This document shows, one piece after another, positions 15,906 to 59,780 of a stretch of 64,000 bases of DNA (its first letter is position 1; each line of letters opens with the position of its first letter). Source of the DNA: an uncultured bacterium (lineage in GTDB: Bacteria > Hydrothermota > Tepidihabitantia > Tepidihabitantales > Tepidihabitantaceae). The stretch covers positions 116,387 through 180,386 of the forward strand of contig CAZPVT010000005.1 in NCBI GenBank assembly GCA_964590395.1, written 5' to 3'. The notes beneath the pieces are model-generated. The model was not told the DNA's origin. It ran no database searches and saw only the letters and a program-made list of their open reading frames with translations. The position numbers and the translations under genes are program-made.

Positions 15906-15908
15906 TCC

Positions 15909-18913: not shown

Positions 18914-18953
18914 TCTGATTGACTTGCTGGACAGGGTTAATTAAAATGGAACT

Positions 18954-26183: not shown

Positions 26184-26271
26184 GGAGGGCTAGCCTAATC
26201 TGGTAAGGCAGCAGACTTGAAATCTGCCGATCCGGCGACGGGTCTTGCGGGTTCGAATCCTGCGCCCTCCG
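26184..26271 (+). tRNA. tRNA-Ser (anticodon TGA)
   Basis: 7-bp acceptor GGAGGGC/GCCCTCC + discriminator G. Anticodon loop CTTGAAA. Long variable arm. T-loop TTCGAAT. Confidence 0.8.
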
Positions 26272-26334
26272 TTTTAAAAACCGGTTTTGGATTGATTTTT
26301 TGTATTATAGATGTTTTTGTTTATAAAATAAAAA

Positions 26335-26423
26335 GGAGAGGTGGCCGAGAGGCTGAAGGCAACCGCTTGCTAAGCGGTTATACCCCTAACCGGGTATCAA
26401 GGGTTCGAATCCCTTCCTCTCCG
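26335..26423 (+). tRNA. tRNA-Ser (anticodon GCT)
   Basis: Acceptor GGAGAGG/CCTCTCC + G. Anticodon loop TTGCTAA. Long variable arm. T-loop TTCGAAT. Confidence 0.8.
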
Positions 26424-26453
26424 CTGGTAATTAATTCTGGCTATTAACCGCCA

Positions 26454-28034: not shown

Positions 28035-28070
28035 CATCAGAGGAGCAGTTTGATATGATAAATAATTTCT

Positions 28071-29786
28071 ATGAGTTGGGATAACGAGAAAAAGTCGGGT
28101 CCTGATTTCATCAGGCGCATAATTAACGAGGACTTGGCGTCGGGTAGATTTCAGCCACCGATTGTTACCCGTTTTCCACCCGAACCTAATGGCTATCTCC
28201 ACATTGGTCATGCCAAGTCGATCTGTCTGAACTTCGGGATTGCTCAGGAGTATGGTGGCAGGTGTCATCTGCGTTTCGATGACACCAATCCAGAAAAGGA
28301 AGAGGAGGAATTTGTCCGGTCAATAATTGAGGATGTCCGATGGCTAGGATTCGACTGGAGGGATTATTTGTATTACGCTTCGGATTACTATGAGCAGTTG
28401 TATCAGTGGGCGGTAGAGTTGATTAAAAACGGTAAGGCTTATGTGTGTGATCTTTCTCCAGAACAGGTGCGAGAGTATCGGGGAACATTGACCGAGCCGG
28501 GTCGAGAAAGTCCGTATCGGAATCGCTCGGTGGAGGAAAATCTGAAGTTGTTTGATCAGATGCGCAGAGGTGAATTCCCTGATGGTGCCAAAACCCTGCG
28601 TGCCAAGATTGATATGGCGTCCCCTAATCTGAATATGCGCGATCCGGTGATGTACCGAATTATGCGTGTTCCCCATCACCGCACAGGCGACAAATGGTGC
28701 ATCTATCCGACATACGACTGGGCACACGGTCAGTCCGATGCCATTGAAGGTGTCACCCATTCAATCTGCACGCTGGAGTTTGAAGACCACCGGCCGCTCT
28801 ATGACTGGTTTATTGAACAACTTGGAATTCACCACCCACGTCAAGTGGAGTTTGCGCGGTTGAATCTGACCTACACCGTACTAAGCAAGCGTCGGTTGAT
28901 GGAGTTGGTACAAGGGGGTTATGTTTCAGGTTGGGATGATCCACGCATGCCGACGATCGCTGGATTACGGCGGCGTGGGTATACCCCGGAGTCAATAAGA
29001 AACTTCTGTGAGATAATCGGAGTCGCCAAAGCAGAGACAGTTGTTTCGATCGACCTTTTGGAGCACTGTGTGCGAGAAGATCTGAACCGACGGGCAGAAC
29101 GTCGGATGGCGGTATTGAAGCCATTAAAGGTGGTGATTGAAAACTACCCCGAAGGGCAGGTTGAGGAGCTGGTGGCACTCAACAATCCCGAAGATTCCAA
29201 TGCCGGCACCCGACTTGTACCTTTTTCCCGGGAGATTTACATTGAACAAGATGATTTCCGTGAGGAGCCACCGCCCAAATACTACCGTTTAGCTCCGGGA
29301 AGAGAAGTACGGTTGCGTTATGCCTATTTCGTCAAATGTGTCGGGGTGACTAAAGATGAGCAGGGGCGTATTAAGGAACTCCGCTGTACCTATGATCCCC
29401 AGACTCGCGGCGGTAACGCGCCGGATAAAGGGAGAGCTAAGGCAACCATTCACTGGGTATCTGTGCCCCACGCTGTTAATGCCGAAGTTCGGCTTTACGA
29501 TCGGTTATTTACTATGCCGGACCCGGATGAAGTGCTACCGGGGAAGGACTGGAGGGCAAATATTAACCCCGATTCACTGGTGGTATTAGCGGAGTGTAAA
29601 TTAGAACCGAGTTTTAATGATGTCAAGCCCGGTGAGATATTTCAGTTTGAACGGCTGGGCTATTTCTGCGCGGATTTGAAAGACTGTCAGCCAGGCCGGC
29701 TGGTTTTCAATCGTACCGTTACGCTCAAGGATACCTGGGTGAAGATCGAACAGAAAATGAAAGAAACACGAAAGGAGGAAAGGTGA
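28071..29786 (+). CDS. glnS: Glutaminyl-tRNA synthetase
   Basis: N-terminal [23 protein letters not shown] motif. VLSKR motif. GlnRS-specific C-terminal beta-barrel anticodon-binding domains. 571 aa. Confidence 0.85.
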
Positions 29787-30391: not shown

Positions 30392-33300
30392 TTACTCCTT
30401 CAACTCTACCGGTTTGTTTTTTCGTTCTGATCTTAGTTCAAATATGGTGTAAAGCACCGGGATGAGTACCAGTGGTAGAAATGTTGAAACCAACATACCG
30501 CCAACAATTGCTCGGCCTAAAGGTGACCACAGTTCTGCGCCCTCACCGATCTGAAACGCCAAGGGTAGCATACCGAAAATTGTCGTCAACGAGGTCATCA
30601 GGATCGGTCGCAGTCGAACTCGTCCCGCTTCTTTAACTGCTGCCAGCAGTGCTAATCCTTGTTTACGCCGTAACTGGTTAGTGTAGTCAATGTAAACAAT
30701 GCCGTTGTTGACCACAATTCCGACCAGTATTAGAACACCCAGCAGTGAGATAACAGAGATAGTGGTGCGGGTTATAAATAGTGTCCACAGTACCCCAATT
30801 ATCGCGAAGGGCATCGTGAACATTATGATGAAAGGGTCGCGTAACGATTCAAACTGGGAAGCCATTACGACAAACACGAGTGTCACCGCGATCAAAAGTA
30901 CTAGGGCAAAATCGCGGAAGGTGGTGGTCATCTCCTGATATGAACCGGAGAGTTGAATATTAAAGCCAGCTGGCACCGGTATTGTCTTTATCGCCCGGGT
31001 AATTTTCTGGGCAAGTTGGCCAGCAGAGATGCCCTCGGTCCTACCGGTAATTTTGACCACGCGCTGATTGTTCTTGCGTTCCAACTCTATCGGTCCTGTA
31101 CCGGTGCTTACCGTAACCAGATTTTTCAATGGTACCGGACCGGTTGGACTGTTGATACTCATACCAAGAATGTCAATCAGTTCGTTCCGCTGTTCTTCTG
31201 GCAACCGGAGGAGAATATCATATTCCCTACCCATTAACCGGAAGGTGCTGACCGTATTGCCTTGAATCTGGGTGCGCAGGGCAGAGCCAATCTGATAGGG
31301 CGTTAAGCCGTAAATGGCCGCCTTCTGACGGTCGATTATCAGTTGCAGTTCTGGTTTCCCAGGTTCTCTACCGGATTTTAGATCCACTAACCCTGGTATT
31401 GTCTCTATTATTGCGATCACCTGTCGAGTTAACGAGTCTGCAGTTGCCAGATCGTATCCGGTGATATTCAATTCGATGCCGGTGCTAACACCAGCCATCG
31501 CGGTGAAACTCCGTTCGGTCACTCGCACTCTTAAACCGGGGATTTTTGCTGCGAAGGCACGGATCGTCCTGTCAATCTCGGCTACGGAATGCCGGCGCTC
31601 TCGTTTTGGTTTCAGAATCATGTTGACTGAGCCGGTATGACTGCCAGTTACCCCGCCGAAGATTGCCTGAAATCCCGTCCCAGAACCTAGCTGAACAGTT
31701 ACCCCTTGAATGTCATTGCGCCAATTTTGCAGGATGTAGTTTTCCAATTTGCTTACCGCCCAATCAGTAGTTTTTAAATCGGTGCCGACCGGCATCTCAA
31801 CAGAGAAGGTATGAAACTGGCTCTCCTGGGAAGGGAAGAACTCCCTACCAATAAACGGTGTGAGCCCGATACTGAGTAACAGGAGGATCACCGCTCCGAA
31901 TACAACCAGTCGGCGATGGCTGAGTGCCCAGCCAACAAGCCTTTCATACCTATCTTCCAGACGACGATAAAACCGTTCACTCCACCCCCTAATACCCTTT
32001 TCTGTTCCTCCCTTCGGTGGCGGTAGATATCTGCTGGTAAGAGTAGGAATTAAGGTCAGGGCGATAACCAGCGAAGCACCGAGCGCTCCGACCACTGCCC
32101 ATACCAGTTCCCGAAAAAATACCTGCATCAATCCTCGGACTAAGAGCAGGGGCAGAAAGACCACTACCGTTGTCAAGGTCGAGGCGGTAATTGCCATTCC
32201 TACTTCACTTGTGCCAATGCTGGCAGCACGAACTCGTTCCTCGTTTCTCTCCCGGTAGCGGAAGATCGCTTCAAAGACTACGATACCATTGTCTACGACC
32301 ATTCCTACCGCTATTGCCAGTCCAGCCATAGAGAGGATGTTAATTGAAAATTCCAGCAGGAACATAAAGAAAAGCGCAAAGAATACTGAAAGGGGTATTG
32401 CAAAGGCAACAAACGCGGTGGCGCGAATGCGACGGAGAAAAAGGAATAGTACCATAACCGCGAGAATACTACCTAAAAGCAAGTTGATAAATACATTGTT
32501 TATTGAACGGGCAATCTCTCGGGAACTGTCGTAGAAGATAGTTGCGCTGATACCGGTTGGTAATGTTCTCTTCAATTCTTCAAACGTCTGACGCGCCGCC
32601 GCCGCAACCCGCACAGTATTAGCGTCGGGACGACGTTGAACGACAACGAAAAGGCAGTTTTCGCCATTATAACGCGTCACCGTGAGTTGCTCTTCAGCAC
32701 CCCAGGTGACTCCAGCCACATCTTTTAACAAGATCGGACTCATTCCCTTCATTCCGACCGGAGTATTTTTTACCGCTTCCGGACTGTGATATTCGCCGAT
32801 CAAACGAATCAGATATTCTTTGCCATTACCGACCACCGTTCCTGCCGGATAGTTCAAATTCTGTGCCTTCAGTGTCTGATTTAGCAGGTCGATGGAGATG
32901 CCCGCCGCGGTCAGTTTCTGAATATCGACTTTCACCTGTAACTGCCGTTTAGTTCCGCCGGCGACTATTGCCGAAGCAACTCCTGGTACCCTTTGGAGTG
33001 CATCTGCGAGGTCATCAGCGGCGTCTCGCAGGGTCAAAGGGTCAACATCACCATATAACCCGATTTGGAGAATCGGCATCATCGAGGCGTCAAGTTTCAA
33101 GACAAAGGGGCGCGTGGCTGCATCCGGTAGTTGGGCAATCGCCATATCCAGCCGGTCCCGAACATCAGCCGCCACGGCATCAAGGTTGGTGCCCCAGGCG
33201 AACTGGAGCTGAATGATTGAGATGTTTTCGAGTGAGCGTGAGGTGATCTCTTTGAGATTGGAGATCGTTCCCACCCGTTGTTCCAGAGTTTTGGTGACTT

Positions 33301-33484
33301 CTGCTTCAACCTCTAATGGTCCAGCACCGGGATAGGTAGTAACAATTATCACTGAAGGCAGAGTAACTTGGGGAAATATATCTACTGGCATTCGTGAGAT
33401 GCTGACCGCGCCAAAGAGAACCAGTACCAGCGATACCAGGATGGTGGTAATGGGGCGGCGAATTGATATGTCGGTGATTTTCAC
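30392..33484 (-). CDS. RND (HAE1/AcrB-type) efflux transporter permease
   Basis: 1030 aa, 12 TM. AcrB-type architecture with two large periplasmic loops. Conserved TM4/TM10 regions. Confidence 0.85.
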   Translation of the reverse strand: MKITDISIRRPITTILVSLVLVLFGAVSISRMPVDIFPQVTLPSVIIVTTYPGAGPLEVEAEVTKTLEQRVGTISNLKEITSRSLENISIIQLQFAWGTNLDAVAADVRDRLDMAIAQLPDAATRPFVLKLDASMMPILQIGLYGDVDPLTLRDAADDLADALQRVPGVASAIVAGGTKRQLQVKVDIQKLTAAGISIDLLNQTLKAQNLNYPAGTVVGNGKEYLIRLIGEYHSPEAVKNTPVGMKGMSPILLKDVAGVTWGAEEQLTVTRYNGENCLFVVVQRRPDANTVRVAAAARQTFEELKRTLPTGISATIFYDSSREIARSINNVFINLLLGSILAVMVLFLFLRRIRATAFVAFAIPLSVFFALFFMFLLEFSINILSMAGLAIAVGMVVDNGIVVFEAIFRYRERNEERVRAASIGTSEVGMAITASTLTTVVVFLPLLLVRGLMQVFFRELVWAVVGALGASLVIALTLIPTLTSRYLPPPKGGTEKGIRGWSERFYRRLEDRYERLVGWALSHRRLVVFGAVILLLLSIGLTPFIGREFFPSQESQFHTFSVEMPVGTDLKTTDWAVSKLENYILQNWRNDIQGVTVQLGSGTGFQAIFGGVTGSHTGSVNMILKPKRERRHSVAEIDRTIRAFAAKIPGLRVRVTERSFTAMAGVSTGIELNITGYDLATADSLTRQVIAIIETIPGLVDLKSGREPGKPELQLIIDRQKAAIYGLTPYQIGSALRTQIQGNTVSTFRLMGREYDILLRLPEEQRNELIDILGMSINSPTGPVPLKNLVTVSTGTGPIELERKNNQRVVKITGRTEGISAGQLAQKITRAIKTIPVPAGFNIQLSGSYQEMTTTFRDFALVLLIAVTLVFVVMASQFESLRDPFIIMFTMPFAIIGVLWTLFITRTTISVISLLGVLILVGIVVNNGIVYIDYTNQLRRKQGLALLAAVKEAGRVRLRPILMTSLTTIFGMLPLAFQIGEGAELWSPLGRAIVGGMLVSTFLPLVLIPVLYTIFELRSERKNKPVELKE

Positions 33485-34362
33485 TTTTCCTCCGCCTCAG
33501 CCACGGCTACCTGCTGACCATCTTTGGTCAACTCCTTGCCGAGCGTAGCAACCAGTTCACTAGGCTGCAATCCGCTGATGACTTCCACCCATTCATCGCC
33601 GTGCAAACCGATAGTAATCCAGCGGAAACGGGCAATACCTTTTTCGACCACGACGACCTTGTTTTCGTCAGTAGTAAATAGGGCGCTAACCGGTATACTC
33701 AGAACATTCCGTTTTTCCTCAACCGTTATCCGTGCCATTCCTGCCATTCCAGGAACCAGTTTACTTCTGGGGTTGGGTATGGTGATTTCTACGGTTGCGG
33801 AGCGGGATTGAGGATCAAGCATCGGTGAGACCTGAGTCACGGTGCCGATGAAACTGGTTTCGGGAAATGCGGAAAAGGAGACTGTTGCCTTGGCGCCACG
33901 CCGGATATAAGGGAGATCTGCATCGCTAACCGCGGCTTTCATTTTGATTCGCTCCGAAAACCGGGCGATCGCAGCAAAAGGTATTGTCGGGGAAACCACT
34001 TGACCAACCTCAACATAAACTTTTCCCACAACCCCGGCGATCGGCGAACACACTGGTCCGGGTTTATAGTCGATTCCGGGGATGTCATTGACCACATAGG
34101 CAATCGGTTCGTCAACGCCGATAAAACTGCCCTCTGGTTTGACGATCTCGGTAACGCGGCCGGTAATCTTGGATGTTACGATAACCTGTTGTTCTCCCTG
34201 TAAAATACCCAGTAGTTGTATTGACCGGGTTACGGTTCTTATCTCACAGGGGATGACCTGAACCGCGGGAAGGGACGCAGTTTTTTCCTTTTTTCCTCCG
34301 CCACAGCCGTAAAGGAGTGCGGTAATAATAACAAAAAGTAATCCGGTATTTTTTCTGCTCAT
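33481..34362 (-). CDS. RND efflux periplasmic adaptor (membrane fusion protein)
   Basis: Lipoprotein signal LLYGCGG. Beta-barrel/lipoyl MFP layout. Translationally coupled to the RND pump. Confidence 0.75.
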   Translation of the reverse strand: MSRKNTGLLFVIITALLYGCGGGKKEKTASLPAVQVIPCEIRTVTRSIQLLGILQGEQQVIVTSKITGRVTEIVKPEGSFIGVDEPIAYVVNDIPGIDYKPGPVCSPIAGVVGKVYVEVGQVVSPTIPFAAIARFSERIKMKAAVSDADLPYIRRGAKATVSFSAFPETSFIGTVTQVSPMLDPQSRSATVEITIPNPRSKLVPGMAGMARITVEEKRNVLSIPVSALFTTDENKVVVVEKGIARFRWITIGLHGDEWVEVISGLQPSELVATLGKELTKDGQQVAVAEAEEK

Positions 34363-34374
34363 TATCTATCCTCC

Positions 34375-35766
34375 TTAAATCTTACCGATTGCTCGTAGCA
34401 ACCGGGCACGGGCGATGGTATAGCCTGCCAACGCTCTTAAATGAGCCACTCGGCTCTGGGTAAGTTGTAATTGGATGTCTAAGAATTCCAGGTTGCTCAA
34501 TAGACCGTTATTGTAACGCTGTTCTGCGAGTTGAAATGCTTCTTGTGCCACCGCGACATTTTCCTTTTGAAAGGCAATATTTTGTTGTTCTTGATGCAGA
34601 TTAGCCAGGGCGGCTTGCACCTCAAGTTTTATCCCCTCTTCTACCATTTTTACCGCCAGTGCCGCCTGTCGGTAGCGAGATTGTGCCTGCTTGAGTTTGT
34701 GGTAATTGGCAAGTCCGGTGAAAATCGGCATACTCACCCCAATGGTCGCATTCCAATCTTTACCCCAGCGGTCATTGAAGCCGACCGGTTTCTTATAGTC
34801 GTAATTGAACTGAGTAAATATCGTCGGCAGATTAGCCGTCCGCGCAATTTGCACCCCAAGATTAGCAATTCTTAATGTCTGGCGTAACTGATTAAGTTCG
34901 GGTCGGTTGCTCAAAGCCGAGTCGAATACCGAGCTAAGATCGATATCCAGCGATTCCACATTAAACTCACTCCTCAACACCAGTACCGTCTTTTCCGAAA
35001 CGCCAATTAGGTTATATAATGCTGCATAGGCAAGAGTTATACCATTTTCTACCTGTATTACCTGATTTGCCATACTAGTCAGACTGAGTTTTGCACGCAT
35101 TACATCCAAGCGACTGGCAAGTCCAGACTCATAAAGCCTCTCTACCTGCTGGACATGGCGCTTAAGTTGTTCGTAAGATTCTTTAATTAGTTCCTTAGTT
35201 TTTTCGGTGAGCAGTGTCTGATAAAATGCCTCAATCGTTTGGACTTTGGTTTGCTGGCGTGCCACTTCGTACGCCGCCTTTTGTGCGGCAAGCGTCAACC
35301 CCGCAATCCGGTAGGCGTTAATCAATTTGCCCCAGGTAAAAACCGTCTGTTGGACCGAGGTGCGCAAAATATAATTATCCTGGGAACCAAGGGGCATCGT
35401 TAGGGTATCAGCTCCAACTGGCATTGGCACCGAATCGGTAAATCCGATGAGCTGCCCGGTCTGTGGATCGTAAACCCGCAAAGGCAGTTGCCGATAAACC
35501 GGGGTAACCAACTGAAATTCATTAAGCGTTCCCAGCCGGGTATAACTACCTGAGGCGGAGATCTGGGGAAAAAAACTCCCCAATGCTACCGCCTTGCCAG
35601 CCGCTGCCTCCAGTACCCTTTCCTGGTTCTGCTGCAGCTGATAGTTATTCTTCAACGCCAGTTCTATCGCCAGATTTTCATCCAGCACCAGTGTATCTGC
35701 CCATAGCGCGGGTGCACTCAGCGCACTGATGGCAAATAGTATCAATGTAAATCCGAATTGGCTCAT
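34375..35766 (-). CDS. TolC-family outer-membrane efflux channel
   Basis: Signal peptide. Two tandem TolC-type repeats with coiled-coil segments. 463 aa. Confidence 0.75.
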   Translation of the reverse strand: MSQFGFTLILFAISALSAPALWADTLVLDENLAIELALKNNYQLQQNQERVLEAAAGKAVALGSFFPQISASGSYTRLGTLNEFQLVTPVYRQLPLRVYDPQTGQLIGFTDSVPMPVGADTLTMPLGSQDNYILRTSVQQTVFTWGKLINAYRIAGLTLAAQKAAYEVARQQTKVQTIEAFYQTLLTEKTKELIKESYEQLKRHVQQVERLYESGLASRLDVMRAKLSLTSMANQVIQVENGITLAYAALYNLIGVSEKTVLVLRSEFNVESLDIDLSSVFDSALSNRPELNQLRQTLRIANLGVQIARTANLPTIFTQFNYDYKKPVGFNDRWGKDWNATIGVSMPIFTGLANYHKLKQAQSRYRQAALAVKMVEEGIKLEVQAALANLHQEQQNIAFQKENVAVAQEAFQLAEQRYNNGLLSNLEFLDIQLQLTQSRVAHLRALAGYTIARARLLRAIGKI

Positions 35767-36365
35767 TTGCCTCCTTTTGTTTTAACCGCAATACCATAAA
35801 AAAATAGATCCAGTGCCCGTGCCGGCGTGCCTTTGATTTTCAACTCCTTAGACATCAGCAGTAACCCGGCGCGGAAGGCGTTAAGGAAGGAAAGCGCCGC
35901 CAGCCTTGGCTCCACCGGTCTAAATTCGCCAGTGCGGACCCCTTCCTCAATTATCTCCGCTAGGGCGTCAACCATACTCTTGACTTCAGGCAGGACCTGC
36001 CGATGAAATCGCTGGGCGATATTGCACCGTTCCTTTTTCATTTCCGGAAAGACCAGGTCAATTGCCGCAGGATGCTGGAGCAACTTTTCGGTCCAGAGAT
36101 TAAAGATCAGGCTGATTTTCTCTTTAGCGGCAAGCGACTTACTTGCGACCTCTTTTAGATAAGCAGTCGCCTGACCGATGAGCCACTGGATAATGCCGAC
36201 ATAAAGGTCAGGTTTATCTTTGAAGTAGAGGTAGACTGTGCCCTTAGCAACACCGGCTGCCCGGGCAACATCATCAACCTTCATCTCGTAATAGCCTTTA
36301 CTACAGACGACACCGAATGCCGCTTGCAGTAGGGCTTCGCGCTTGGTAAGTGATTTTCCTTTCAT
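35763..36365 (-). CDS. TetR/AcrR-family transcriptional regulator
   Basis: N-terminal HTH (LLQAAFGVVCSKGYYEMKVDDVARAAGVAKGTVYLYF). 200 aa. First gene of the efflux operon. Confidence 0.8.
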   Translation of the reverse strand: MKGKSLTKREALLQAAFGVVCSKGYYEMKVDDVARAAGVAKGTVYLYFKDKPDLYVGIIQWLIGQATAYLKEVASKSLAAKEKISLIFNLWTEKLLQHPAAIDLVFPEMKKERCNIAQRFHRQVLPEVKSMVDALAEIIEEGVRTGEFRPVEPRLAALSFLNAFRAGLLLMSKELKIKGTPARALDLFFYGIAVKTKGGK

Positions 36366-36382: not shown

Positions 36383-36428
36383 CATTATACCTAACATCTA
36401 ATCTTATGTCAATCTTTTCTTTTAGACC

Positions 36429-37274
36429 TCAGTATTCGGGGGGCAGATTTAGCAATTGGTCGTAGGAGAAGACCGGACCGTCTTTGCAGACATATTTCGG
36501 TCCGATGTTACAATGGCCACATTTGCCGATACCGCACTTCATTCGGTTTTCCAGGGATAGAAATACCCGGTCCGGGCTAAAACCCAGTTCGGCTAACACC
36601 GGATGGGTATACTTAATCATTATCGGAGGTCCACACACCAGTGCCACCGCATTCTCCGCCTTCGGTGCTACCGATTTCAGGACGTTAGGTACCAGTCCCT
36701 CCCTTTTAGGCCAATCAGCACCGTTTAATCGATCGACGCACAGAATTAAATCCAGGTCCGGATTTTGCTCCCAGGCGCGCAATTCCTCTTTGTAAAGCAG
36801 TTCTCCTGGGGAACGGGCGCCGTAGATGGCGGTGATCTTGCCGAAGTTTAGTCGATTTTTTGGTGGAAGTAGATGGGCGATCGTGGCGCGCAGAGTGGTG
36901 AAGGAAAAGCCACCGGAAACGATCACCACATCCTTCCCAATCATTAACTCAAAAGGATAAGAGTTTCCCCAGGGGCCGCGCATGCCGATAATTTTTCCTT
37001 CGGTCATTTCGTGCAATGCGGTAGTGAACACTCCAACCCGTTTTACGGTGAATTTAACCAGCGGTTCGTGCGGGGCAGAGGCAATGCCGAACGGTGCTTC
37101 GCCGGTGCCGGCAATTGATAGAAAGGCAAACTGGCCTGGTATGAACTGAAACTGTTGCCGGTCAGATTCGTTAACAAAAGCCAGATCAAATGTTTTTAGG
37201 TCCCGAGCATCGTTTTCGATCGTTACCTTTTCGATCCGCATCGACAGGGGCAGATAAGGGTTAGACATCATCAT
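36429..37274 (-). CDS. Sulfhydrogenase gamma-subunit-like (HydG/AsrB-type) FAD/NAD(P)H oxidoreductase with a [2Fe-2S] cluster
   Basis: Strong similarity to P. furiosus HydG, including the C-terminal RMKCGIGKCGHCNIG and CKDGPVFSY motifs. Confidence 0.75.
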   Translation of the reverse strand: MMMSNPYLPLSMRIEKVTIENDARDLKTFDLAFVNESDRQQFQFIPGQFAFLSIAGTGEAPFGIASAPHEPLVKFTVKRVGVFTTALHEMTEGKIIGMRGPWGNSYPFELMIGKDVVIVSGGFSFTTLRATIAHLLPPKNRLNFGKITAIYGARSPGELLYKEELRAWEQNPDLDLILCVDRLNGADWPKREGLVPNVLKSVAPKAENAVALVCGPPIMIKYTHPVLAELGFSPDRVFLSLENRMKCGIGKCGHCNIGPKYVCKDGPVFSYDQLLNLPPEY

Positions 37275-38290
37275 TTTCCCATCCCATCAATGATCCGTAG
37301 CAGTTTCGCTACTGTTTGGCGGATGTCAATTCCGGCGGGACAGGCGCTGATGCATCTGCCGCAACCGACGCAGGAGATTAAGCCTACCTGCTCGGTGGTG
37401 TAGTAAAATTTATCCATCATCCGGTTACGATAGCGGGAACTCGAGTCAAAACGGGGGTTGTGTCCTGAGGCATGCCGGGAATAGAGTGTAAACTGGCACG
37501 AATCCCAAACCCGGTAGCGGGCAGATTTACCCCGCATCGTTTCGTCGGTGACATCAAAGCAATGGCAGGTTGGACAGAGAAAGGTGCAGGCGCCGCAGTT
37601 GACACAGGAGAGACTCAGAACCTCCCAGACCTCATGCTTGAACAGTTGAGGCAATTTTCCCTGCAACTTCTTGACATCAAATCGTTCGTTTATTTCGCTT
37701 TCCACCTTTGACTTCAACGCCGCCCTCTTTCTTAAAACCGTCTCATCCGCCGGGGAGAGGTCCGCGAGGAGTTTCTCCCCTTTTTCGGTAACCGCTTCGG
37801 CAAGAAACACCCCCTCCACTTCAGTTAGAAGTAAATCCAGGCCTTCAGTATCGTGAGGGCTGTTACCCAGCGCAAAACAAAAACAGGTAGGGGCGGTGCG
37901 ATTGCAAGCCATACCGATCAGGGTGGTTTTTTCAACTCTTCTCTGGACATAAGGGTCGCTTTTTCCATCCTGGACAAAAAACCGTTCAAGCACCTTAAGG
38001 GCACGGGCATCACAGGGGCGAATGCCAAAGAGTATCTGTTCTTGGATGGGTGCCGGTACAATCGGGTTGCCATTTTTGTCAAAGCGCATAAGCAGTTCGC
38101 AACGGGGAAAGATAAAGCCCTTTGCCGGCTCACGGCTATTGACCGCTTCAAGGTAGACCTCATCTACGGAACTGATTTTTGCCCAGTTGGCAGTGCCTTT
38201 TTCTCGTACCGGGGCATAGACATCAACATGGGATATTAACCGGTCGAGCAATTGGGTAAGTTCGTTTCGGGTAACGATACAGGCTTTCAT
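37271..38290 (-). CDS. Sulfhydrogenase beta-subunit-like (HydB/AsrA-type) iron-sulfur protein
   Basis: VYAPV, LFGIRPCDARALKVLE, CVNCGACTFLCPTCHCFDV, VWDSCQF and CVGCGRCISACPAGI motifs align with HydB/AsrA. Confidence 0.75.
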   Translation of the reverse strand: MKACIVTRNELTQLLDRLISHVDVYAPVREKGTANWAKISSVDEVYLEAVNSREPAKGFIFPRCELLMRFDKNGNPIVPAPIQEQILFGIRPCDARALKVLERFFVQDGKSDPYVQRRVEKTTLIGMACNRTAPTCFCFALGNSPHDTEGLDLLLTEVEGVFLAEAVTEKGEKLLADLSPADETVLRKRAALKSKVESEINERFDVKKLQGKLPQLFKHEVWEVLSLSCVNCGACTFLCPTCHCFDVTDETMRGKSARYRVWDSCQFTLYSRHASGHNPRFDSSSRYRNRMMDKFYYTTEQVGLISCVGCGRCISACPAGIDIRQTVAKLLRIIDGMGK

Positions 38291-39135
38291 TTAATAAACT
38301 CCTGGGAGTCTTCGGGTAAAAAACGGGTAAGGGCGGGGGGACTGTTGATATCAACACCGGGCGAGGTGTCAAACCGTTCGCGGACGATCTTAGTGATCCG
38401 ACGGTTAAAGCGCATCAGATCAATCCCCATCGGGCAGGCACGGTGACAGGCACCGCATTCCACACACCTGCCCGCCATATGTAGGAGACGGATGATGTGA
38501 AAGACCATATTGTCGGAAATGTTATGGGTTTTGCCGAGAAGTTGGGGTGTTGAGGCATCAACAAAACAGACTGGACAGTAGCAGTTCGGGCAGGCCTGAC
38601 GGCAGGCATAACAGCGAATACAGCGGGCAACATCCGCACTTAAAACCTGCCACCTTTGGTCTGGTGTCAACCGGTCAAAATCATCATCTGCCTTTAGCAC
38701 CTGTGGGCCCGGTGTTGTTTTTTCTACCGGTGCATCGACCATTTCATCGTAAATTACCGGATTCGGATACTGACAGGCCTTGCAGGTAACCGACTTTTCT
38801 CCGTTGTGCACCACGCCTTCACAGCCTACACCGAGGATATAGAGGTTTTCCCGGACAATTTGCTTTTCCTGGAGGAGAACAACGATGGAACGGGAATCAC
38901 AGCCCTTAGCGATTACCGCCACCCTGCCAATATTCTTTACCTTCAGAAGATAATTAGCGATGTTAGGAGAACAGGTGGAGTCAAAGATCAGCTCTGCTGT
39001 CTGGTCTGGTGTGGTGGCGAAAAATGGCTGGGCAACGTTATCTTGGGCACCAGCACGATAACCTAATACTAATTTCACCACACCTTGGCTCAAAAGTTCG
39101 TTTGCCCGTTTGCGTAGTAGTTCGGTTCGACTCAT
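38287..39135 (-). CDS. Iron-sulfur oxidoreductase subunit with two 4Fe-4S ferredoxin motifs (possibly FrhB/FdhB-like)
   Basis: CIRCYACRQACPNCYC and CVECGACHRACP motifs. The N-terminal domain contains a GCDSRS segment. Confidence 0.55.
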   Translation of the reverse strand: MSRTELLRKRANELLSQGVVKLVLGYRAGAQDNVAQPFFATTPDQTAELIFDSTCSPNIANYLLKVKNIGRVAVIAKGCDSRSIVVLLQEKQIVRENLYILGVGCEGVVHNGEKSVTCKACQYPNPVIYDEMVDAPVEKTTPGPQVLKADDDFDRLTPDQRWQVLSADVARCIRCYACRQACPNCYCPVCFVDASTPQLLGKTHNISDNMVFHIIRLLHMAGRCVECGACHRACPMGIDLMRFNRRITKIVRERFDTSPGVDINSPPALTRFLPEDSQEFIK

Positions 39136-39566
39136 TGCGGTATTTCCTTAATCAGTTTTTTATTTGGCCCGAGTTGCCGGACCTTCTCAGTTACTTCCTT
39201 AACCAGTTGGGCAAAACGTTCTCCTTCGGATGCAGAAACCCAGGCAAATGTTACCCTACCTGGTTCAATACCGCAGAAGGCCAAGAGGTCGTTTAAGACA
39301 GCAAACCGGCGCCGGGCAACAAAATTGCCGGTGAGATAATGGCAGTCACCAGGATGGCACCCGGAAACTAAAACGCCGTCCGCCCCCTGCTGTAAAGCCT
39401 GTAAAATAAAAAAAGGGTCAACCCTGCCCGAGCAGGGAACTCGGATTACCCGGATTGATGGAGGATAGTGGATGCGAGAGATTCCTGCGAGGTCAGCTCC
39501 GGCATAAGAACACCAGTTACACAGAAAGGCGACGATTTTGGGTTGAAAATCGCTGTTATCCGCCAT
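39132..39566 (-). CDS. MvhD/FlpD-like (methyl-viologen-reducing hydrogenase delta-subunit domain) electron-transfer protein
   Basis: KIVAFLCNWCSYAGADLAG...RVPCSGRVD...GCHPGDCHY is the classic MvhD Cys pattern. The longest ORF extends to 39683, but the MADNSDF start at 39566 gives a typical ~144-aa MvhD. Confidence 0.65.
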   Translation of the reverse strand: MADNSDFQPKIVAFLCNWCSYAGADLAGISRIHYPPSIRVIRVPCSGRVDPFFILQALQQGADGVLVSGCHPGDCHYLTGNFVARRRFAVLNDLLAFCGIEPGRVTFAWVSASEGERFAQLVKEVTEKVRQLGPNKKLIKEIPQ

Positions 39567-39892
39567 TTGAATAGTTATTATAACCTTAATTGATTCCTGT
39601 GTCCAGTTTGGCGGTAATTGATGGTTAAAAAATAAACCCATGCCGATAATCACTGTTCCGCAGAGGGCAAAATTAATGCGCAAAGTGCTTTTGGGGTTAA
39701 ATTATTTCAGGATAATGGAGTTAGTACTGAGAACGGTTCTTTTTAAGGTAGTGTTAGTATGGCGGTTTTTCAATGGTAATTGGAATTGGAGAGGAGGGAC
39801 GGGTTAAAAACAAATTGTATGACAGTAGAGATTGATTACTGGCTTTCCTTTTTTATTGACAGGAGTTTTTTGTATTTTAAAATTGAGTAAAA

Positions 39893-39965
39893 GCCGGGAT
39901 AGCTCAGTTGGTAGAGCACAGGACTGAAAATCCTGGTGTCCACAGTTCGATTCTGTGTCCCGGCA
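39893..39965 (+). tRNA. tRNA-Phe (anticodon GAA)
   Basis: GCCGGGA acceptor. D-loop AGCTCAGTTGGTAGAGC. Anticodon loop CTGAAAA. T-loop GTTCGATTC. 73 nt. Confidence 0.85.
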
Positions 39966-39992: not shown

Positions 39993-40247
39993 TTGGCAAA
40001 GCGTAGCATTTCGGTTTTAAGACAGGCGAGAAAGAATGAGCGCCGCCGGGAGCGTAACCGGTTAAGGCGGTTGGCAATGAAAAAGGCGATAAAGGCGGTG
40101 CGCAACGCCCAAACAAAGGAGGAGGCGTTAAAGGCATTCGTTACTGCCCAGTCGGTGATTGACCGTTCGGTAAAGTATAGAATTATTCACCGCAATACCG
40201 CCAGCCGACTCAAATCCCGTCTGATGAAGGCAATCGCTTATCTATAA
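39993..40247 (+). CDS. rpsT: 30S ribosomal protein S20
   Basis: 84-aa basic helical protein with an S20-like N-terminus (AKRSISVLRQARKNERRRERNR). TTG start with a GGAGG RBS. Confidence 0.8.
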   Translation: MAKRSISVLRQARKNERRRERNRLRRLAMKKAIKAVRNAQTKEEALKAFVTAQSVIDRSVKYRIIHRNTASRLKSRLMKAIAYL

Positions 40248-40290: not shown

Positions 40291-41487
40291 ATGAAGGTTC
40301 TTTATATCACCACTGCCTATCCCCGCTCAGAAAAAGATATCATCACGCCCTGGTTAGTTGAAACCGTTCAGCTTCTGCAGGGCAAAGCCATTGACATCAC
40401 GGTGTTTACTTCTGCCTATCAGGGGCTGGGCGACCAGACGGTGATGGGAACAAGGGTCAAACGGTTTCGATATTTTTTTGCCCGCTGGGAGAAATTAACC
40501 CATGATGAAACCGCAATCGATCGGGTGCAGAAGGGATTTTTAAACAAAATTCTGGCGTTCTGTTATCTGCTTTTGGGCACGATGGCAGTCTGGCGGTTAT
40601 GCAGGAAAGAGCATTTTGACATAATCCATGTTCACTGGCCATTGCCCCACTTCCTGTTTGGTTATGTGGCAGGGCGGGTCTGTGCCGCGCCGATTGTAAT
40701 CAGTTTTCACGGTGCGGAGTTGATGGCGGTGCGCAAGAAATTTCGGCTCCTGCGGCCGTTTCTGCGCTGGGCGATTGCCCGCGCAGACCGGGTAACTGCC
40801 AATTCCACCCACACGGTTCGGGCAATTCAAGAGATTTTTAATCGGTCCGTGGATATTGTTCCGTTTGGGGCAGCGGTTTCTACAAAGGGGGGGCAGGTAC
40901 GGGTGGAAATGGCTGCAGAGAAATCTATTCTTTTTGTTGGCAGGCTGGTTGAGCGGAAAGGGGTAAGGTATCTGATTGAGGCAGCCGCGCAGATCGCTTC
41001 CCGGTATAACATTCGGGTTGATATTGTGGGTGATGGTCCGGAGTTGCCGAAACTGATGCGGTTGACCGCTGAGAAGGGGCTTGGCGCGGTGGTCAGATTC
41101 CACGGCCGGGTTTCAGCTGAGGAACTGCCCCGGTTCTATGAGAACTGTGATATATTTGTTCTGCCCGCGGTTATCGACAGTAAGGGTGATACCGAAGGGT
41201 TAGGAGTGGTGTTGATTGAGGCGATGACCTATAAGAAACCGGTGATAGCATCAGCAGTTGGTGGGATTACCGATCTGGTGATAGATGGTCAGACTGGACT
41301 TGCAGTTCCTCCCGGTGATGGAGATGCACTTGTCCGGGCGATCGTTCAATTAATTGAAAAGCCAGAACTGGCGCAGCGGCTCAGCCAGCAGGGTTATGAG
41401 CATATCTTAGCCAATTACTCCTGGGGGGTAATAATTGACCGGCTTATAACTCTATATCAGGAAGTTTATTCCAGCCATTCAGAATAA
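40291..41487 (+). CDS. Glycosyltransferase family 1 (GT4-type, GT-B fold)
   Basis: The C-terminal half carries the EGLGVVLIEAM...KPVIAS...GGI..LV motif characteristic of GT4 enzymes. Confidence 0.8.
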   Translation: MKVLYITTAYPRSEKDIITPWLVETVQLLQGKAIDITVFTSAYQGLGDQTVMGTRVKRFRYFFARWEKLTHDETAIDRVQKGFLNKILAFCYLLLGTMAVWRLCRKEHFDIIHVHWPLPHFLFGYVAGRVCAAPIVISFHGAELMAVRKKFRLLRPFLRWAIARADRVTANSTHTVRAIQEIFNRSVDIVPFGAAVSTKGGQVRVEMAAEKSILFVGRLVERKGVRYLIEAAAQIASRYNIRVDIVGDGPELPKLMRLTAEKGLGAVVRFHGRVSAEELPRFYENCDIFVLPAVIDSKGDTEGLGVVLIEAMTYKKPVIASAVGGITDLVIDGQTGLAVPPGDGDALVRAIVQLIEKPELAQRLSQQGYEHILANYSWGVIIDRLITLYQEVYSSHSE

Positions 41488-45270: not shown

Positions 45271-45327
45271 TCCTAAAAGAAAATATGAAAATTGGGTTCA
45301 GGAAGAGCAAATAAAAGGAGGCAAGCT

Positions 45328-46335
45328 GTGCAGGTAATAATTAAAAGGTACCGACTGTTAGGAGTCGGCCTATTACTGGCAGTGGTGATGTTCACCGGCT
45401 GCGGTCGAATGCCGCCACAAGAAATCTGGCAGCCGAATGCGCAAGATTCCACCGCGCTCGATTCTATCGTTCTTGCCAACAAGGATTTGCTTACCGTGAA
45501 TTTCGCTGAGACGGAGATGCAGTATCTCGAATGGGTGGTTCCGGATACAATTCTCAAAAAGGCAATCAAGGATAATCCCTTCAAACAGCGCTATATCTGC
45601 GACTCAATGCAACGTATTTTTAATGACTCACTACGCAAATGGCATCACCGGTTTATTGCCACGGTTGACACCGGAGTAGGGGATACAACCGCAACAATTT
45701 TTGTCACAGAGACGATACCGGGCAGATTAATAATGCACGCCAGAAGGTATACAAGATATCTGCGCGATTCAATTATCATCACGCCATCCGATACCATCCG
45801 GTTACACTTCTACGATACCCTCTGGACCGACACCTCCCTGATTGTTGAGAAGCCAATTAACGCAATTGCTTATGACGGGTGTGTTTTACGCAAGGAACAG
45901 GGGGCCTGGCGGTTCTGGAAATTGGCTGGTGGCCAGCGGTTTTATGCACCAACCTTTGAGGATGCACCGTATTTAGTTAACGTCTATCTCACCAATGGAA
46001 CCCGAAGCGATACTTTTGCCTGGCGTCCTGACACCCTACATTTTGGCACCCAGCGGTTTTACGAATATCCGGACAGTCTATTAACATATCCAGAGAACGA
46101 CAGTTTGTGGATTACTTCTTTTTACAATCCCACCGGAACCGACTTTTTTAATTTCTTTATCTTCCAGGGGGTGCGGTACCGAGTCATCGCCACTAACCGA
46201 ATAAGATTGACTCAATCAGGTGTGCATCGGCTTTATGTGGAACAGGTGCCGTATGCGGTGTTTTATGATTCGGGCGGCGAGTTAACAGCTACTGTCTGGG
46301 GAATTCCTATTTATATTAAAGGAGGCGGACAATGA
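45328..46335 (+). CDS. Lipoprotein of unknown function
   Basis: GTG start at 45328 preceded by AAGGAGG (the ATG at 45292 lacks an RBS). Lipoprotein signal LLLAVVMFTGC. Stop overlaps the next start. Confidence 0.45.
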   Translation: MQVIIKRYRLLGVGLLLAVVMFTGCGRMPPQEIWQPNAQDSTALDSIVLANKDLLTVNFAETEMQYLEWVVPDTILKKAIKDNPFKQRYICDSMQRIFNDSLRKWHHRFIATVDTGVGDTTATIFVTETIPGRLIMHARRYTRYLRDSIIITPSDTIRLHFYDTLWTDTSLIVEKPINAIAYDGCVLRKEQGAWRFWKLAGGQRFYAPTFEDAPYLVNVYLTNGTRSDTFAWRPDTLHFGTQRFYEYPDSLLTYPENDSLWITSFYNPTGTDFFNFFIFQGVRYRVIATNRIRLTQSGVHRLYVEQVPYAVFYDSGGELTATVWGIPIYIKGGGQ

Positions 46336-49163
46336 GAAGGTGTGCATTTTTTATTATCGCTTTGCTTTTAATCGCGGGGAGCGCATTTGCGGGCGTTGTC
46401 GGTCGGATTAAAGGCAAGGTGATCGATAAGAAGACCAGAGAGCCCTTAGTTGGTGCCAATGTGATTGTGGTCGGCACCGAACTGGGTGCAGCGACCGATG
46501 CGAACGGTGAATATGAGATTAACAATGTCCCGCCGGGCAGGTATAAACTTACCGCTTCCTACATCAGTTATAACGAGATGAGCGTTACTGATGTGCTGGT
46601 AGTTCAGGACCAGGTGGCGATTATTGACTTTCAGTTAAGCCCGACAGTGATTGAGGTTGGTCCGGTTGAGGTGAAGGCAGAACGGCCATTGGTGAACCGG
46701 GGAACGGTGACGGTGGAGCGGGTGATCACTGATGAGGAGTTCAAGCGGTTGCCGGTTGTGCAACTGTCTGAACTGGTCGGTTTGCAGGCGGGCGTTACGC
46801 AAACCACGGGTCGGGGCTGGACCCACATCCGTGGCGGTAGATACGATGATGTCGCCTATCTGGTGGACGGTGTCGCGGCGCAGGATGCAGTGGTAGGAAC
46901 GCTGTGGTCAAGCCCGAAGCCCACGAGTGATGCGCTGGCATCGGTGGTGGTGGTGACCGGTGGTTTTGATGCGGAGTATGGCTCAGCGATGTCCGGTATT
47001 ATCAAGGCAGTGACCAAAGAGGGTGGTTCACGAACCAGCGGGAAGATCGGGTATCTGACTGATGAGGTTTTCCCGAAACCGGACCTGAATTTCGGTTATA
47101 ACCGGGTTACCTTTTCGCTGGGCGGACCCACATTCTATAACCGCCTGCGTTATTTTATCTCCACCGAATACTTCAAGACCGATGATGACCGAAACTGCCT
47201 GTATAAGGTTAATTCGCCCAGAGGTGAGTATGCGGCAGAAGGTAAATTGACACTTCAGTTTCCGAAGGAGTTTTTCCTGACCCGGGAGGGTTTGAAGTTA
47301 ACCGTCGACGGCTATCACTCCAATTACCAGTGGCAGGCATGGGCGAACAGTTACAAGTTTTATCAAAAGGCACTTTATGCCAATAGGGTACGTAGTTATA
47401 AAGGTAATGTGACGCTGAACCATATGCTTTCGCCGACCACGGTTTATGAGGCGAAGTTGGGCGTTTTCTCCACCTCGTTAATCAGGACGGTGCGGAATTT
47501 TGATGCTGAGGCAGCAGATACCACCGGATTCTGGGGTTTTCTGCGCAAGAACGGAATCTGGGACCGATATTTCTTCCGGGCTGAGGACTGGGTGTTTAAC
47601 AATCCGGAAGGGCTATCGAAGAAAGAGGCGGTTTTGCAGTTGTGGCGTTCTTACTGGCTATCCCCGAGCGGGGACACCGTTTATGCCCATAAGGCGCAGA
47701 AGAAGAATTTTATGACCGCGTATGCTTTGATCGATAATCCCTATGGTGTGGCTGGTCTGTTTGTTACCGAAGGTGATAACCGGACCTGGCATTACCGGCA
47801 AACCGATCATATGCTTTTCAAGTTTGATCTGACCAAGACCATCTCCAAGGTACACGAGATCAAGACTGGTGTTGATATCACTCAGTATTCGGTTTCAATG
47901 TATGACAACTCCCTACCATGGGACCAGAATCCGTTCTGGGATGCGTTTAATTATAAACCGCTGGTGGCTGCTGCTTATATCCAGGACCGGGCAGATTTTG
48001 AGGACCTGGTGGTGCGTGCTGGTGTTCGGTTTGATTATCTTGATGCAAAGGCAAAGGTGCGGGTTTTTCCTGAGTCGCTCGGTTCAACACCAGAAATTGC
48101 CGACAGTTTTATACCGGTGCCGCCAAAGTACCGTCTTTCACCTCGACTGGGTATCTCTTATCCGATTACTGAGCGGATTAAGTTCCGCTTTTCTTATGGC
48201 CATTTCTTCAAAAATCCGGTTTTTGCCAATCTGTATGAGTACGGTGAGCGACCAGCAGCCGAATTGCGGGGGCGGGGTAATGTCATTGTGGGTAATCCGG
48301 ATATGAGCGCGGAAAAGACCATCGCCTATGAGTTAGGGTTTGATGCCCAGTTAAGTGATGTATTTGCCTTTGACCTGACTGCATTTTACAAGGATGTGTT
48401 TGACCTTTCCGGTGTGCGTGTAGTTTCCGCACTGCCTCAGCCCTACACGATGTATTACAATGTCGAGTATGCCCGTATTCAGGGTTTTGAAGCAACGATG
48501 ACCAAGGCGCTTGCCAATTACTGGAATACCCAATTGGGTTACACCTTCCAGGTCGCGAAAGGCACCGCCTCCACTGCGACTGACCAGTATCAGCGGGAAA
48601 AACCACTGCAGATTGATTTCTATCTGGATCAAGATCAGCGCCATTCACTGCACGGCAGTTTAGGATTTTACTTTCCGTCGGACTTTGGATTTACTCCACT
48701 GCGCGACTTCAATGCCTCCGCGGTTGCCAATTATGGCTCTGGTATGCCCTACACACCGACCGACATTAGAGGTAACCGAACCGGTGCGGAAAATTCGGCA
48801 AGAATGCCTTCAAGTTTCACGATGGATATGCGGTTTGGCAAGGACATCAGACTGGGTGGTCTTAACCTAGTGCTTTCCTGCGATATTACCAACCTTCTGA
48901 ATGCCCGGGTGGCAACCAATGTTTATGCTACGACCGGTAAGCCGGATAATGATGGGCGGGTATTCACACCACAGGAGTTTGTGCCTGGTATCAGGTTCGG
49001 GGATCTGTATTACCATCCGGCACGGGATTTCAATCATGATGGTTATCTGACGCGGATGGAGATGTATCAGTCCTATATTCGGGCGCGCGAGGATTATGTG
49101 AAGGCACCGACCTATTACGGTTCGTCAAGGAAAGTTCGTTTTGGCATCAGCCTGTCTTTCTAA
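46332..49163 (+). CDS. TonB-dependent-receptor-type outer-membrane protein with an N-terminal CarbopepD_reg domain
   Basis: Signal peptide. GVVGRIKGKVIDKKTREPLVGANV..GEYEINNVPPGRYKL. Plug. Large beta-barrel ending in F. Confidence 0.7.
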   Translation: MRRCAFFIIALLLIAGSAFAGVVGRIKGKVIDKKTREPLVGANVIVVGTELGAATDANGEYEINNVPPGRYKLTASYISYNEMSVTDVLVVQDQVAIIDFQLSPTVIEVGPVEVKAERPLVNRGTVTVERVITDEEFKRLPVVQLSELVGLQAGVTQTTGRGWTHIRGGRYDDVAYLVDGVAAQDAVVGTLWSSPKPTSDALASVVVVTGGFDAEYGSAMSGIIKAVTKEGGSRTSGKIGYLTDEVFPKPDLNFGYNRVTFSLGGPTFYNRLRYFISTEYFKTDDDRNCLYKVNSPRGEYAAEGKLTLQFPKEFFLTREGLKLTVDGYHSNYQWQAWANSYKFYQKALYANRVRSYKGNVTLNHMLSPTTVYEAKLGVFSTSLIRTVRNFDAEAADTTGFWGFLRKNGIWDRYFFRAEDWVFNNPEGLSKKEAVLQLWRSYWLSPSGDTVYAHKAQKKNFMTAYALIDNPYGVAGLFVTEGDNRTWHYRQTDHMLFKFDLTKTISKVHEIKTGVDITQYSVSMYDNSLPWDQNPFWDAFNYKPLVAAAYIQDRADFEDLVVRAGVRFDYLDAKAKVRVFPESLGSTPEIADSFIPVPPKYRLSPRLGISYPITERIKFRFSYGHFFKNPVFANLYEYGERPAAELRGRGNVIVGNPDMSAEKTIAYELGFDAQLSDVFAFDLTAFYKDVFDLSGVRVVSALPQPYTMYYNVEYARIQGFEATMTKALANYWNTQLGYTFQVAKGTASTATDQYQREKPLQIDFYLDQDQRHSLHGSLGFYFPSDFGFTPLRDFNASAVANYGSGMPYTPTDIRGNRTGAENSARMPSSFTMDMRFGKDIRLGGLNLVLSCDITNLLNARVATNVYATTGKPDNDGRVFTPQEFVPGIRFGDLYYHPARDFNHDGYLTRMEMYQSYIRAREDYVKAPTYYGSSRKVRFGISLSF

Positions 49164-49176
49164 GGGGGAGGATAAG

Positions 49177-52122: not shown

Positions 52123-52133
52123 AGGAGGCAAGA

Positions 52134-56672: not shown

Positions 56673-56673
56673 A

Positions 56674-58005: not shown

Positions 58006-58094
58006 TTATAAACTTTCCCCGATTGAGCATATATAGATTAATTTGAGATAAACAGTTGATTCGACGAGAGAGTAAGATCAATAACATTATCTAA

Positions 58095-58215
58095 AATTTA
58101 TAGTTGCACCCCTCCAAGTCAACTTTTTACCGGCGAGTGTTGCGGTTCCGGCACTGCCAGGCGCCGGTATCGGGGATAGGTTTTTTGAAACAGACCAGAG
58201 GGCAATTTGGGCATA
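58095..58215. repeat. Copy 2 of a triplicated palindrome + promoter-like element
   Basis: CCTCCAAGTCAA...CCGGCActgccaggcGCCGG-TATCGGGGATAGGTTTTTTGAAA. Shares the 5' part and core with 62995-63125. ~90 nt upstream of the MTase start. Confidence 0.6.
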
Positions 58216-59664: not shown

Positions 59665-59780
59665 ATTACCTCCTTGTTTTAGAGCGATTTTTTATCTTTT
59701 GTGTGCGGTCAAGGTCCAATAAGGACATCGATAAAATTCATAACAATAACAATAAATCTGTCGAGGTCAAGTTTTTTCTT

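Follow-up and report, generated by a model that had tools for sequence, protein, structure and literature searches.

What does a pair of sulfhydrogenase-like proteins do in an operon that contains no hydrogenase? The question is raised by four overlapping genes in a 64,000-nucleotide stretch of contig CAZPVT010000005.1 (the window), which comes from an uncultured bacterium; close homologues of the module carry the name candidate division WOR-3. The genes encode an MvhD-type adaptor, an Fe-S protein with ferredoxin motifs and homologues of HydB and HydG, the beta and gamma subunits of Pyrococcus furiosus sulfhydrogenase I (SHI). A sequence-only reading of the window had presented them as a 'hydrogenase-less sulfhydrogenase-like module'. 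The module matches instead the flxDCBA/Flox genes that have already been described (PMC12125255, PMC4215793, PMC5947623), and it can be assigned with good confidence to a known family, as a type II Flx/Flox member in WOR-3 that is unlinked from the hdr genes of heterodisulfide reductase (Hdr); it is neither a new system nor a hydrogenase remnant. Automatic annotation labels these genes 'sulfhydrogenase beta', 'formate dehydrogenase beta' and '4Fe-4S ferredoxin', labels that could falsely suggest hydrogen, sulfur or formate metabolism in WOR-3 genomes. Their reading as a Flx arm would instead give the organism an NAD(P)H-linked bifurcating/confurcating system of the Hdr type.

Composition of the flxDCBA-type module

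A check against the list of open reading frames (ORFs) places the four genes on the minus strand between 39566 and 36429 in the order D-C-B-A, with 4-bp overlaps between successive genes (39135/39132, 38290/38287 and 37274/37271). The tight overlap noted earlier, with the MvhD and ferredoxin-motif genes in first position, is thus borne out at all three junctions, and the four genes very likely form one translationally coupled operon that encodes an electron-input arm of the Flx/Flox type (Table 1). The span first proposed, 36429-39683, contains these ORFs but is probably too long: the listed TTG start at 39683 adds 39 N-terminal residues that are not conserved across 64 homologues, so flxD most likely starts at the ATG at 39566. 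Three independent assemblies, one with a 181-kb JGI contig and the other two from Logan, show the same four-gene arrangement, which excludes a misassembly hiding adjacent [NiFe] hydrogenase genes.

The Pfam scan of the window covered 39 of the 44 ORFs of at least 150 aa; three efflux genes were judged from precomputed Pfam entries, and two antisense ORFs (14768-15583 and 40597-41103) lay outside it. Among the ORFs scanned there is no [NiFe] domain (NiFeSe_Hases, Oxidored_q6), no sirohaem domain (NIR_SIR), no metF/metV and no Hdr (CCG) domain, and the module thus does not adjoin an hdrA gene here. The operon boundaries given by the sequence-only reading, with tRNA-Phe and rpsT upstream, an efflux operon downstream and no [NiFe] genes adjacent, are confirmed.

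Desulfovibrio and Bilophila contain an hdrCBA-flxDCBA operon that encodes a heterodisulfide reductase and an NADH-oxidising flavin oxidoreductase (PMC12125255, PMC4215793); FlxA has been called "the predicted NADH dehydrogenase" (PMC4759654). The window module has the four-subunit Flx composition (an MvhD-type FlxD, two Fe-S proteins and a FAD/[2Fe-2S] FlxA) and the flxD-flxC-flxB-flxA gene order in one operon, and its subunit sizes fit the masses reported for Desulfovibrio vulgaris (FlxA 31.0, FlxB 39.4, FlxCD 54.1 and HdrA 70.9 kDa; PMC10920352). It thereby shares subunits, D-C-B-A order and similar sizes with the FlxABCD-HdrABC systems of D. vulgaris, D. alaskensis and Bilophila, in which Flx is the proposed NADH-linked donor arm of an HdrA-based bifurcating/confurcating complex. 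In contrast to the Desulfovibrio systems, the window has no hdr in cis, its FlxA belongs to the GGF(A/S)FTT / P(I/F)GIA subtype described below, and its FlxC is shorter (282 aa versus about 316-350 aa).

The flxD product matches Pfam FlpD (PF02662) with an E value of 1.6e-55 (186.8 bits against a cut-off of 22.3), and its matches in the PDB include MvhD (5odc_D, E 3e-49) and 7bkb_F (E 3e-48). Five Cys, in the motifs CNWC, C(S)G and GCHxGDCH, are kept in 94-98% of 64 homologues.

FlxC carries two ferredoxin motifs (Pfam), as the earlier label '2x[4Fe-4S] protein' implied; the limit of two clusters does not hold, since the protein is FdhB/ElpB-like and has 16 conserved Cys, sufficient for four clusters. 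In solved Hdr complexes, FdhB/ElpB (FAD and four [4Fe-4S]) and MvhD/ElpC ([2Fe-2S]) constitute the mobile donor arm, and the 16 Cys of FlxC match the four [4Fe-4S] clusters reported for ElpB/FdhB. FlxC resembles the FdhB/ElpB subunit of the methanogen FdhAB-MvhD and ElpABC arms (7BKB, 8RVU, 9T1S) both in sequence (phmmer against the PDB: 9t1s_M, E 3.6e-29; 7bkb_E, E 8e-24; 8rvu_E, E 4e-22) and in fold (AlphaFold2 model with pLDDT 87.6; top Foldseek PDB matches 7bkb_E at 3e-13 and 8rvu_E at 7e-13, with a query TM of 0.70 alongside the E value of 3e-13), while FlxD resembles MvhD/ElpC of the same arms in sequence. The phmmer alignment of FlxC with FdhB falls into two pieces, leaving FdhB residues ~130-256 without a counterpart, and FrhB_FdhB_C (PF04432), the FAD/F420 region, gives no match to FlxC at E<=0.01. 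A 372-aa paralogue in the Hdr cluster described below does match this domain (E 1.3e-7). Because ~130 FdhB residues and the FrhB_FdhB_C match are missing, FlxC is probably an electron wire that has lost the flavin/F420 site and not a hydride-accepting subunit. Unlike in the methanogen arms, the hydride site would be supplied by FlxA via FlxB, and the donor would be NAD(P)H, not F420H2 or formate.

FlxB contains Fer4_22 (Pfam, E 4e-35) and aligns over residues 11-331 with SHI beta (9nez_B, E 5e-41), and FlxA contains FAD_binding_6, NAD_binding_1 and the [2Fe-2S] domain DHODB_Fe-S_bind and aligns over residues 4-278 with SHI gamma (9nez_C, E 3e-50). The homology of the pair to HydB/HydG that had been claimed therefore extends nearly from end to end. 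All NCBIfam scores are nonetheless below the family cut-offs. FlxB reaches 171 of 323 bits for AsrA (TIGR02910, its top match, E 3.7e-50), 160 of 690 for ShyB and 156 of 750 for HydB; FlxA reaches 176 of 289 bits for AsrB (TIGR02911, E 9e-52), 182 of 600 for ShyC and 171 of 650 for HydG. By these profiles, the two proteins are superfamily members outside the HydB/ShyB/AsrA and HydG/ShyC/AsrB equivalogs. With SHI beta/gamma (9NEZ) and AsrA/AsrB they share full-length alignments and Cys motifs; they differ in having no [NiFe] or sirohaem partners, in falling into a separate clade and in the glycine loop of FlxA.

Cofactor motif mapping, which had been suggested as a check, found all ligands conserved in the four proteins. 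FlxB has 15 invariant Cys and a conserved His; in FlxA, the [2Fe-2S] ligands C247, C252, C255 and C263 are conserved, and the nucleotide motifs YGARS and CGPPIM are conserved and canonical. The glycine loop of FlxA reads GGFSFTT in place of GGxGxxP, a form common to 44 of 81 FlxA-like proteins, and the flavin-N5 Ser position is occupied by Gly (PFGIAS). FlxA is the presumed NAD(P)H site, and its two canonical motifs point to NAD(P)H as the likely donor despite the odd loop. Structurally, the Flx arm can be read as two joined pairs, one like SHI beta/gamma and the other like FdhB/MvhD. The PDB sequence matches of the four proteins include no Flx chain, and this structural reading may help the modelling of a Flx-Hdr complex.

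Table 1. Positions of the operon and its upstream flank in the window
Feature	Position	Strand	Remarks
flxD (MvhD-type [2Fe-2S] adaptor)	39132..39566	-	144 aa; Pfam FlpD
flxC-like Fe-S protein, truncated FdhB/ElpB homologue	38287..39135	-	282 aa; PDB phmmer, Foldseek
flxB-like Fe-S protein, HydB/AsrA superfamily	37271..38290	-	339 aa; Fer4_22, 9nez_B
flxA-like FAD/[2Fe-2S] flavoprotein, subtype II	36429..37274	-	281 aa; Pfam domains, 9nez_C
Promoter-like site TGGACA-17-TATAAT	39577..39605	-	11/12 consensus matches; consensus match only
tRNA-Phe	39893-39965	+	upstream flank of the operon
rpsT	39993-40247	+	upstream flank of the operon

Gene context, phylogeny and Flx subtypes

A scan of genome collections with an alignment of the 339-aa protein identified at least 80 loci spread over more than 15 phyla, Asgard and Thermoplasmatales archaea among them. 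ORFs were called in the 80 loci listed, which do not include the window's own genome, and were labelled by phmmer. FlxC, FlxB and FlxA occur in this order in 76 of them, and MvhD also stands in front in 71. An HdrA-type ORF lies within 9 kb at 65 of the 80 listed loci (65 of the 68 that can be judged) and an HdrB/C-type ORF at 56. Only three modules are demonstrably stand-alone, with at least 3 kb on both sides and unrelated neighbours; at eight further loci no HdrA is seen and the module lies at a contig end, so that its context cannot be judged. The four genes also occur in the complete WOR-3 genome CP070680, where they divergently adjoin hdrC-hdrA(662)-long HdrA(1482)-mvhD-FdhB-like.

[NiFe] genes occur within 9 kb at one of the 76 module-bearing listed loci (L026), where they stand beside a second, separate HydB/HydG pair. 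This locus, a metagenome-assembled genome of Thermoplasmatales, carries HdrA-MvhD-FlxC-FlxB-FlxA and a HydB-HydG-small-large [NiFe] operon about 5 kb apart (positions 8617-20366). Its HydG is directly followed by Oxidored_q6 and NiFeSe_Hases proteins (Pfam), which makes it a true sulfhydrogenase-type operon, and the locus is a natural internal control for separating the two paralogous pairs.

In a neighbour-joining (NJ) tree of 87 FlxB sequences that included P. furiosus HydB and the HydB of L026, all MvhD-linked FlxB proteins fall into one clade and both HydB proteins fall outside it. The window FlxB groups with those of the stand-alone WOR-3-like loci L005, L008 and L009, and the sister of this group is L004, which is adjacent to hdr. 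Because the window clusters with stand-alone loci and is sister to an Hdr-adjacent one, the tree points to one rearrangement within a WOR-3 subclade that separated flx from hdr. A second, independent unlinking is seen in the Latescibacterota genome L014 when compared with its sister L015.

The FlxA proteins of the listed loci split cleanly into two subtypes. Type I (n=29) has the glycine loop GGIG(L/Q)AP and the flavin-site motif M(I/F)SIS, and type II (n=44, including the window) has GGF(A/S)FTT and P(I/F)GIA, respectively; the FlxB tree is broadly congruent with the split. The GGF(A/S)FTT loop had been considered as a signature of the whole Flx family, an idea rejected on wider tabulation, in which it marks one of the two subtypes. 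The gene directly upstream of mvhD encodes a ~650-aa HdrA in 23 type I cases. Upstream of type II modules it encodes a long HdrA (~1000 or 1400-1500 aa) in 26 cases and never the ~650-aa class, and a gene of the HdrBC type often comes next downstream. No description of a two-subtype split of FlxA that tracks the HdrA class was found in the literature searched. The residual novelty of the finding lies in the uncharacterised type II FlxA, the majority form among the listed loci, and in the question of which of three HdrA-class proteins an unlinked arm would select.

By mass (70.9 kDa), the HdrA of D. vulgaris belongs to the ~650-aa class associated with type I. The long HdrA classes are known from Sporomusa (101 kDa) and from Moorella (162.8 kDa, with a GltD NAD(P)H domain; PMC9430772), and the long HdrAs associated with type II correspond to these classes and to "HdrL". 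The MetFV-HdrABC-MvhD complexes of Moorella and Sporomusa combine long HdrAs of 1487 and 942 aa with MvhD (PMC9430772), and in several Bacillota loci (L007, L019, L028) a type II flxDCBA module lies directly beside a MetFV-Hdr cluster. In Syntrophobacter fumaroxidans, the Hdr/Flox genes (Sfum_1969-1977) associate Flox with a non-canonical Hdr, in which HdrA is extra or long and HdrD replaces HdrBC (PMC5947623). This long-HdrA context is of the type found for the window's subtype in the 26 loci above; the Flox genes of S. fumaroxidans adjoin hdr, whereas here flx and hdr are on different contigs.

Probable Hdr partner and rival explanations

A WOR-3 HdrA query identified an HdrA protein (P0169) on Ga0136652_1000001, the largest contig (291,648 bp) of metagenome JGI 3300010308; the window is contig Ga0136652_1000002 of the same metagenome. 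This HdrA is also present in SRR10519663, which holds the window's operon too. Its locus (L089, contig positions 240029-261975, locus positions 1-21947) is an Hdr super-cluster that adjoins 2-oxoacid:ferredoxin oxidoreductase genes. A POR-linked Hdr-like set is followed by hdrC-hdrB-hdrA(648)-HdrL(1491)-mvhD-FdhB-like(372)-Fer4(219)-HdrA(1005). The hdrABC-HdrL-mvhD-FdhB-like part reproduces the HdrABC/HdrL layout of S. fumaroxidans (Sfum_0819-0824) and the POR-linked set its "HdrAL/POR" layout. The cluster has four FlpD/MvhD domains, including those of a 516-aa FlpD+Fer4+CCG fusion and a 645-aa Fer4+FlpD protein, and no metF/metV is recorded among the genes called in it. Tetranucleotide composition correlates between window and Hdr locus with r = 0.89, compared with 0.87-0.95 for controls within the window and at most 0.81 for the best unrelated locus, and GC is 0.495 in the Hdr locus and 0.479 in the window. 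Co-occurrence and composition thus place the hdr cluster and the window very probably in the same organism.

In full-length comparison, the 1491-aa and 1005-aa proteins share 48-52% identity with the long HdrAs encoded immediately before type II flxDCBA modules elsewhere; the 648-aa HdrA shares 50-58% with HdrAs found ahead of type I modules. Since the 1005-aa HdrA is the only one of the cluster without a following mvhD, it is the most parsimonious and likeliest partner of the orphan flxDCBA; the 1491-aa HdrL and the 648-aa HdrA are less likely. The sequence-only reading had proposed that the module docks on a hydrogenase or an Hdr encoded elsewhere. The Hdr part of this proposal fits the frequent HdrA neighbours and the hdrCBA/HdrL genes on the second contig, and the tree and the family cut-offs speak against the hydrogenase part.

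In the proposed mechanism, NAD(P)H would reduce the FAD of FlxA, from which electrons would pass to the FlxA [2Fe-2S] cluster, then through up to four clusters of FlxB and up to four of the FdhB-like FlxC, and finally to the [2Fe-2S] cluster of FlxD/MvhD, docked on an HdrA-type flavoprotein whose gene lies in another part of the genome. The FAD of HdrA would bifurcate the electron pair, reducing ferredoxin at low potential and a disulfide through HdrB/C-type subunits; the reverse direction, a confurcation producing NAD(P)H, would also be possible. All of this is prediction: that the proteins form a complex, which donor and acceptors it uses and in which direction it runs. The earlier suggestion of a bifurcating NAD(P)H complex survives in its NAD(P)H link, as a prediction, and not in its location: the bifurcation site in solved Hdr complexes is the HdrA FAD (PMC12350162), and any bifurcation would sit there and not in the flx module itself.

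Several points weigh against this reading. The module is identified as Flx by its gene order, its composition, the masses of its subunits and the descriptions in later papers. There is no hdr gene in the 64-kb window, so that the partnership is deduced and not seen in cis, and the Hdr contig is assigned by co-occurrence and composition, not from a closed genome. The NJ tree of FlxB carries no support values. Because the FlxA loop is GGFSFTT and the flavin-N5 Ser position is Gly, NAD(P)H appears less secure as the donor than in the Desulfovibrio type, and no biochemical characterisation of a type II FlxA was found in the literature searched.

A variant of the Flx reading holds that the WOR-3 arm is a separately transcribed, trans-acting input that serves more than one of the three HdrA-class proteins (648, 1005 and 1491 aa) or a non-Hdr partner, with a type II FlxA that may use a donor other than NAD(P)H; we consider this unlikely. 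Quite improbable, too, is a free-standing soluble oxidoreductase that works independently of Hdr (for example with NAD(P)H:ferredoxin, NAD(P)H:polysulfide or another acceptor), in which case the unlinking would mark a new function in the WOR-3 subclade. Such an enzyme would account for the solitary modules of the window lineage and of L005, L008 and L009, for the independent case in Latescibacterota (L014) and for the operon's apparent promoter-like site of its own. However, MvhD is the HdrA connector in the solved Mvh-Hdr, Fdh-Hdr and Elp-Hdr complexes, and the four proteins have no recognisable substrate site beyond the nucleotide site of FlxA. Moreover, the sister lineage L004 still adjoins hdr, and three HdrA-class genes are retained in what is probably the same genome, where one of these lacks the usual downstream mvhD-flx.

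It is very unlikely that the pair belongs, as beta and gamma subunits, to a group-3b [NiFe] sulfhydrogenase with its catalytic alpha and delta genes elsewhere in the genome. MvhD and an FdhB-like subunit have no place in SHI, and the window ORFs scanned include no [NiFe] genes. Among solved structures, FlxB and FlxA do match the P. furiosus SHI subunits best, and JGI names many homologues 'sulfhydrogenase subunit beta'; yet the scores reach at most a quarter of the cut-offs for ShyB/HydB and under a third of those for ShyC/HydG, the HydB next to [NiFe] genes in L026 lies outside the MvhD-linked clade together with that of P. furiosus, and the single instance of [NiFe] genes near a module is tied to a separate HydB/HydG pair. 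Subunits of an AsrAB-type anaerobic sulfite reductase with AsrC encoded elsewhere, the placement that the sequence-only reading had named as a possible refutation, are extremely improbable: the Asr profiles give low E values, but both scores stay well under the cut-offs, the ORFs scanned include no sirohaem protein, MvhD and an FdhB-like protein are encoded in the same operon, and the module is accompanied by HdrA instead of AsrC at 65 of the 80 listed loci. Both identities were thus rejected on cut-offs, gene context and the NJ tree.

Operon flanks and other features of the window

Six promoter-like sites were found in the operon region, compared with 4.6 expected. The -10 hexamer of the site listed in Table 1 ends 11 nt upstream of the conserved flxD ATG, before which no Shine-Dalgarno sequence is visible, and the flx transcript may have little or no leader. 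In the operon flanks, Rfam and inverted-repeat scans returned tRNA-Phe only, and a terminator scan of the region gave no more sites than expected by chance.

Downstream, the flx operon is followed by a TetR-OEP-MFP-RND efflux operon (30392-36365, minus strand) with TetR as its first gene. The 63-bp gap before the TetR gene contains a perfect sigma-70 consensus (TTGACA-17-TATAAT, 12/12; 36384-36412, minus strand). The TetR-efflux-GlnRS/GluRS synteny also follows the flx operon in the relatives L005 and L006, at 65% identity. In the window, two tandem tRNA-Ser genes (anticodons TGA and GCT) precede adjacent genes for a GluRS-like (526 aa) and a GlnRS-like (571 aa) protein (26184-29786, plus strand).

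The 6763-8034 region (minus strand) holds an ORF for a PASTA-domain Ser/Thr kinase in which the Pkinase profile is matched from position 84 only; either the ORF lacks the N-lobe or its start codon has been placed too far downstream. A 271-aa ORF at 14768-15583 (minus strand) is antisense to genes for a nitroreductase (14711-15310) and an FMN-reductase (15327-15905) and is probably not a gene. The 45292-55335 region (plus strand) encodes a TonB-dependent receptor (CarboxypepD_reg and Plug), a 993-aa ORF without a Pfam match, a PorV-like protein and a C11 peptidase of the clostripain family, and may be a protein-uptake or protease locus linked to type IX secretion. Beyond it, a run of minus-strand genes (55407-61579) that comprises a 421-aa ORF without a Pfam match, an N6/N4 DNA methylase, a DUF7663 protein and an AAA_14 ATPase may constitute a restriction-modification or defence islet.

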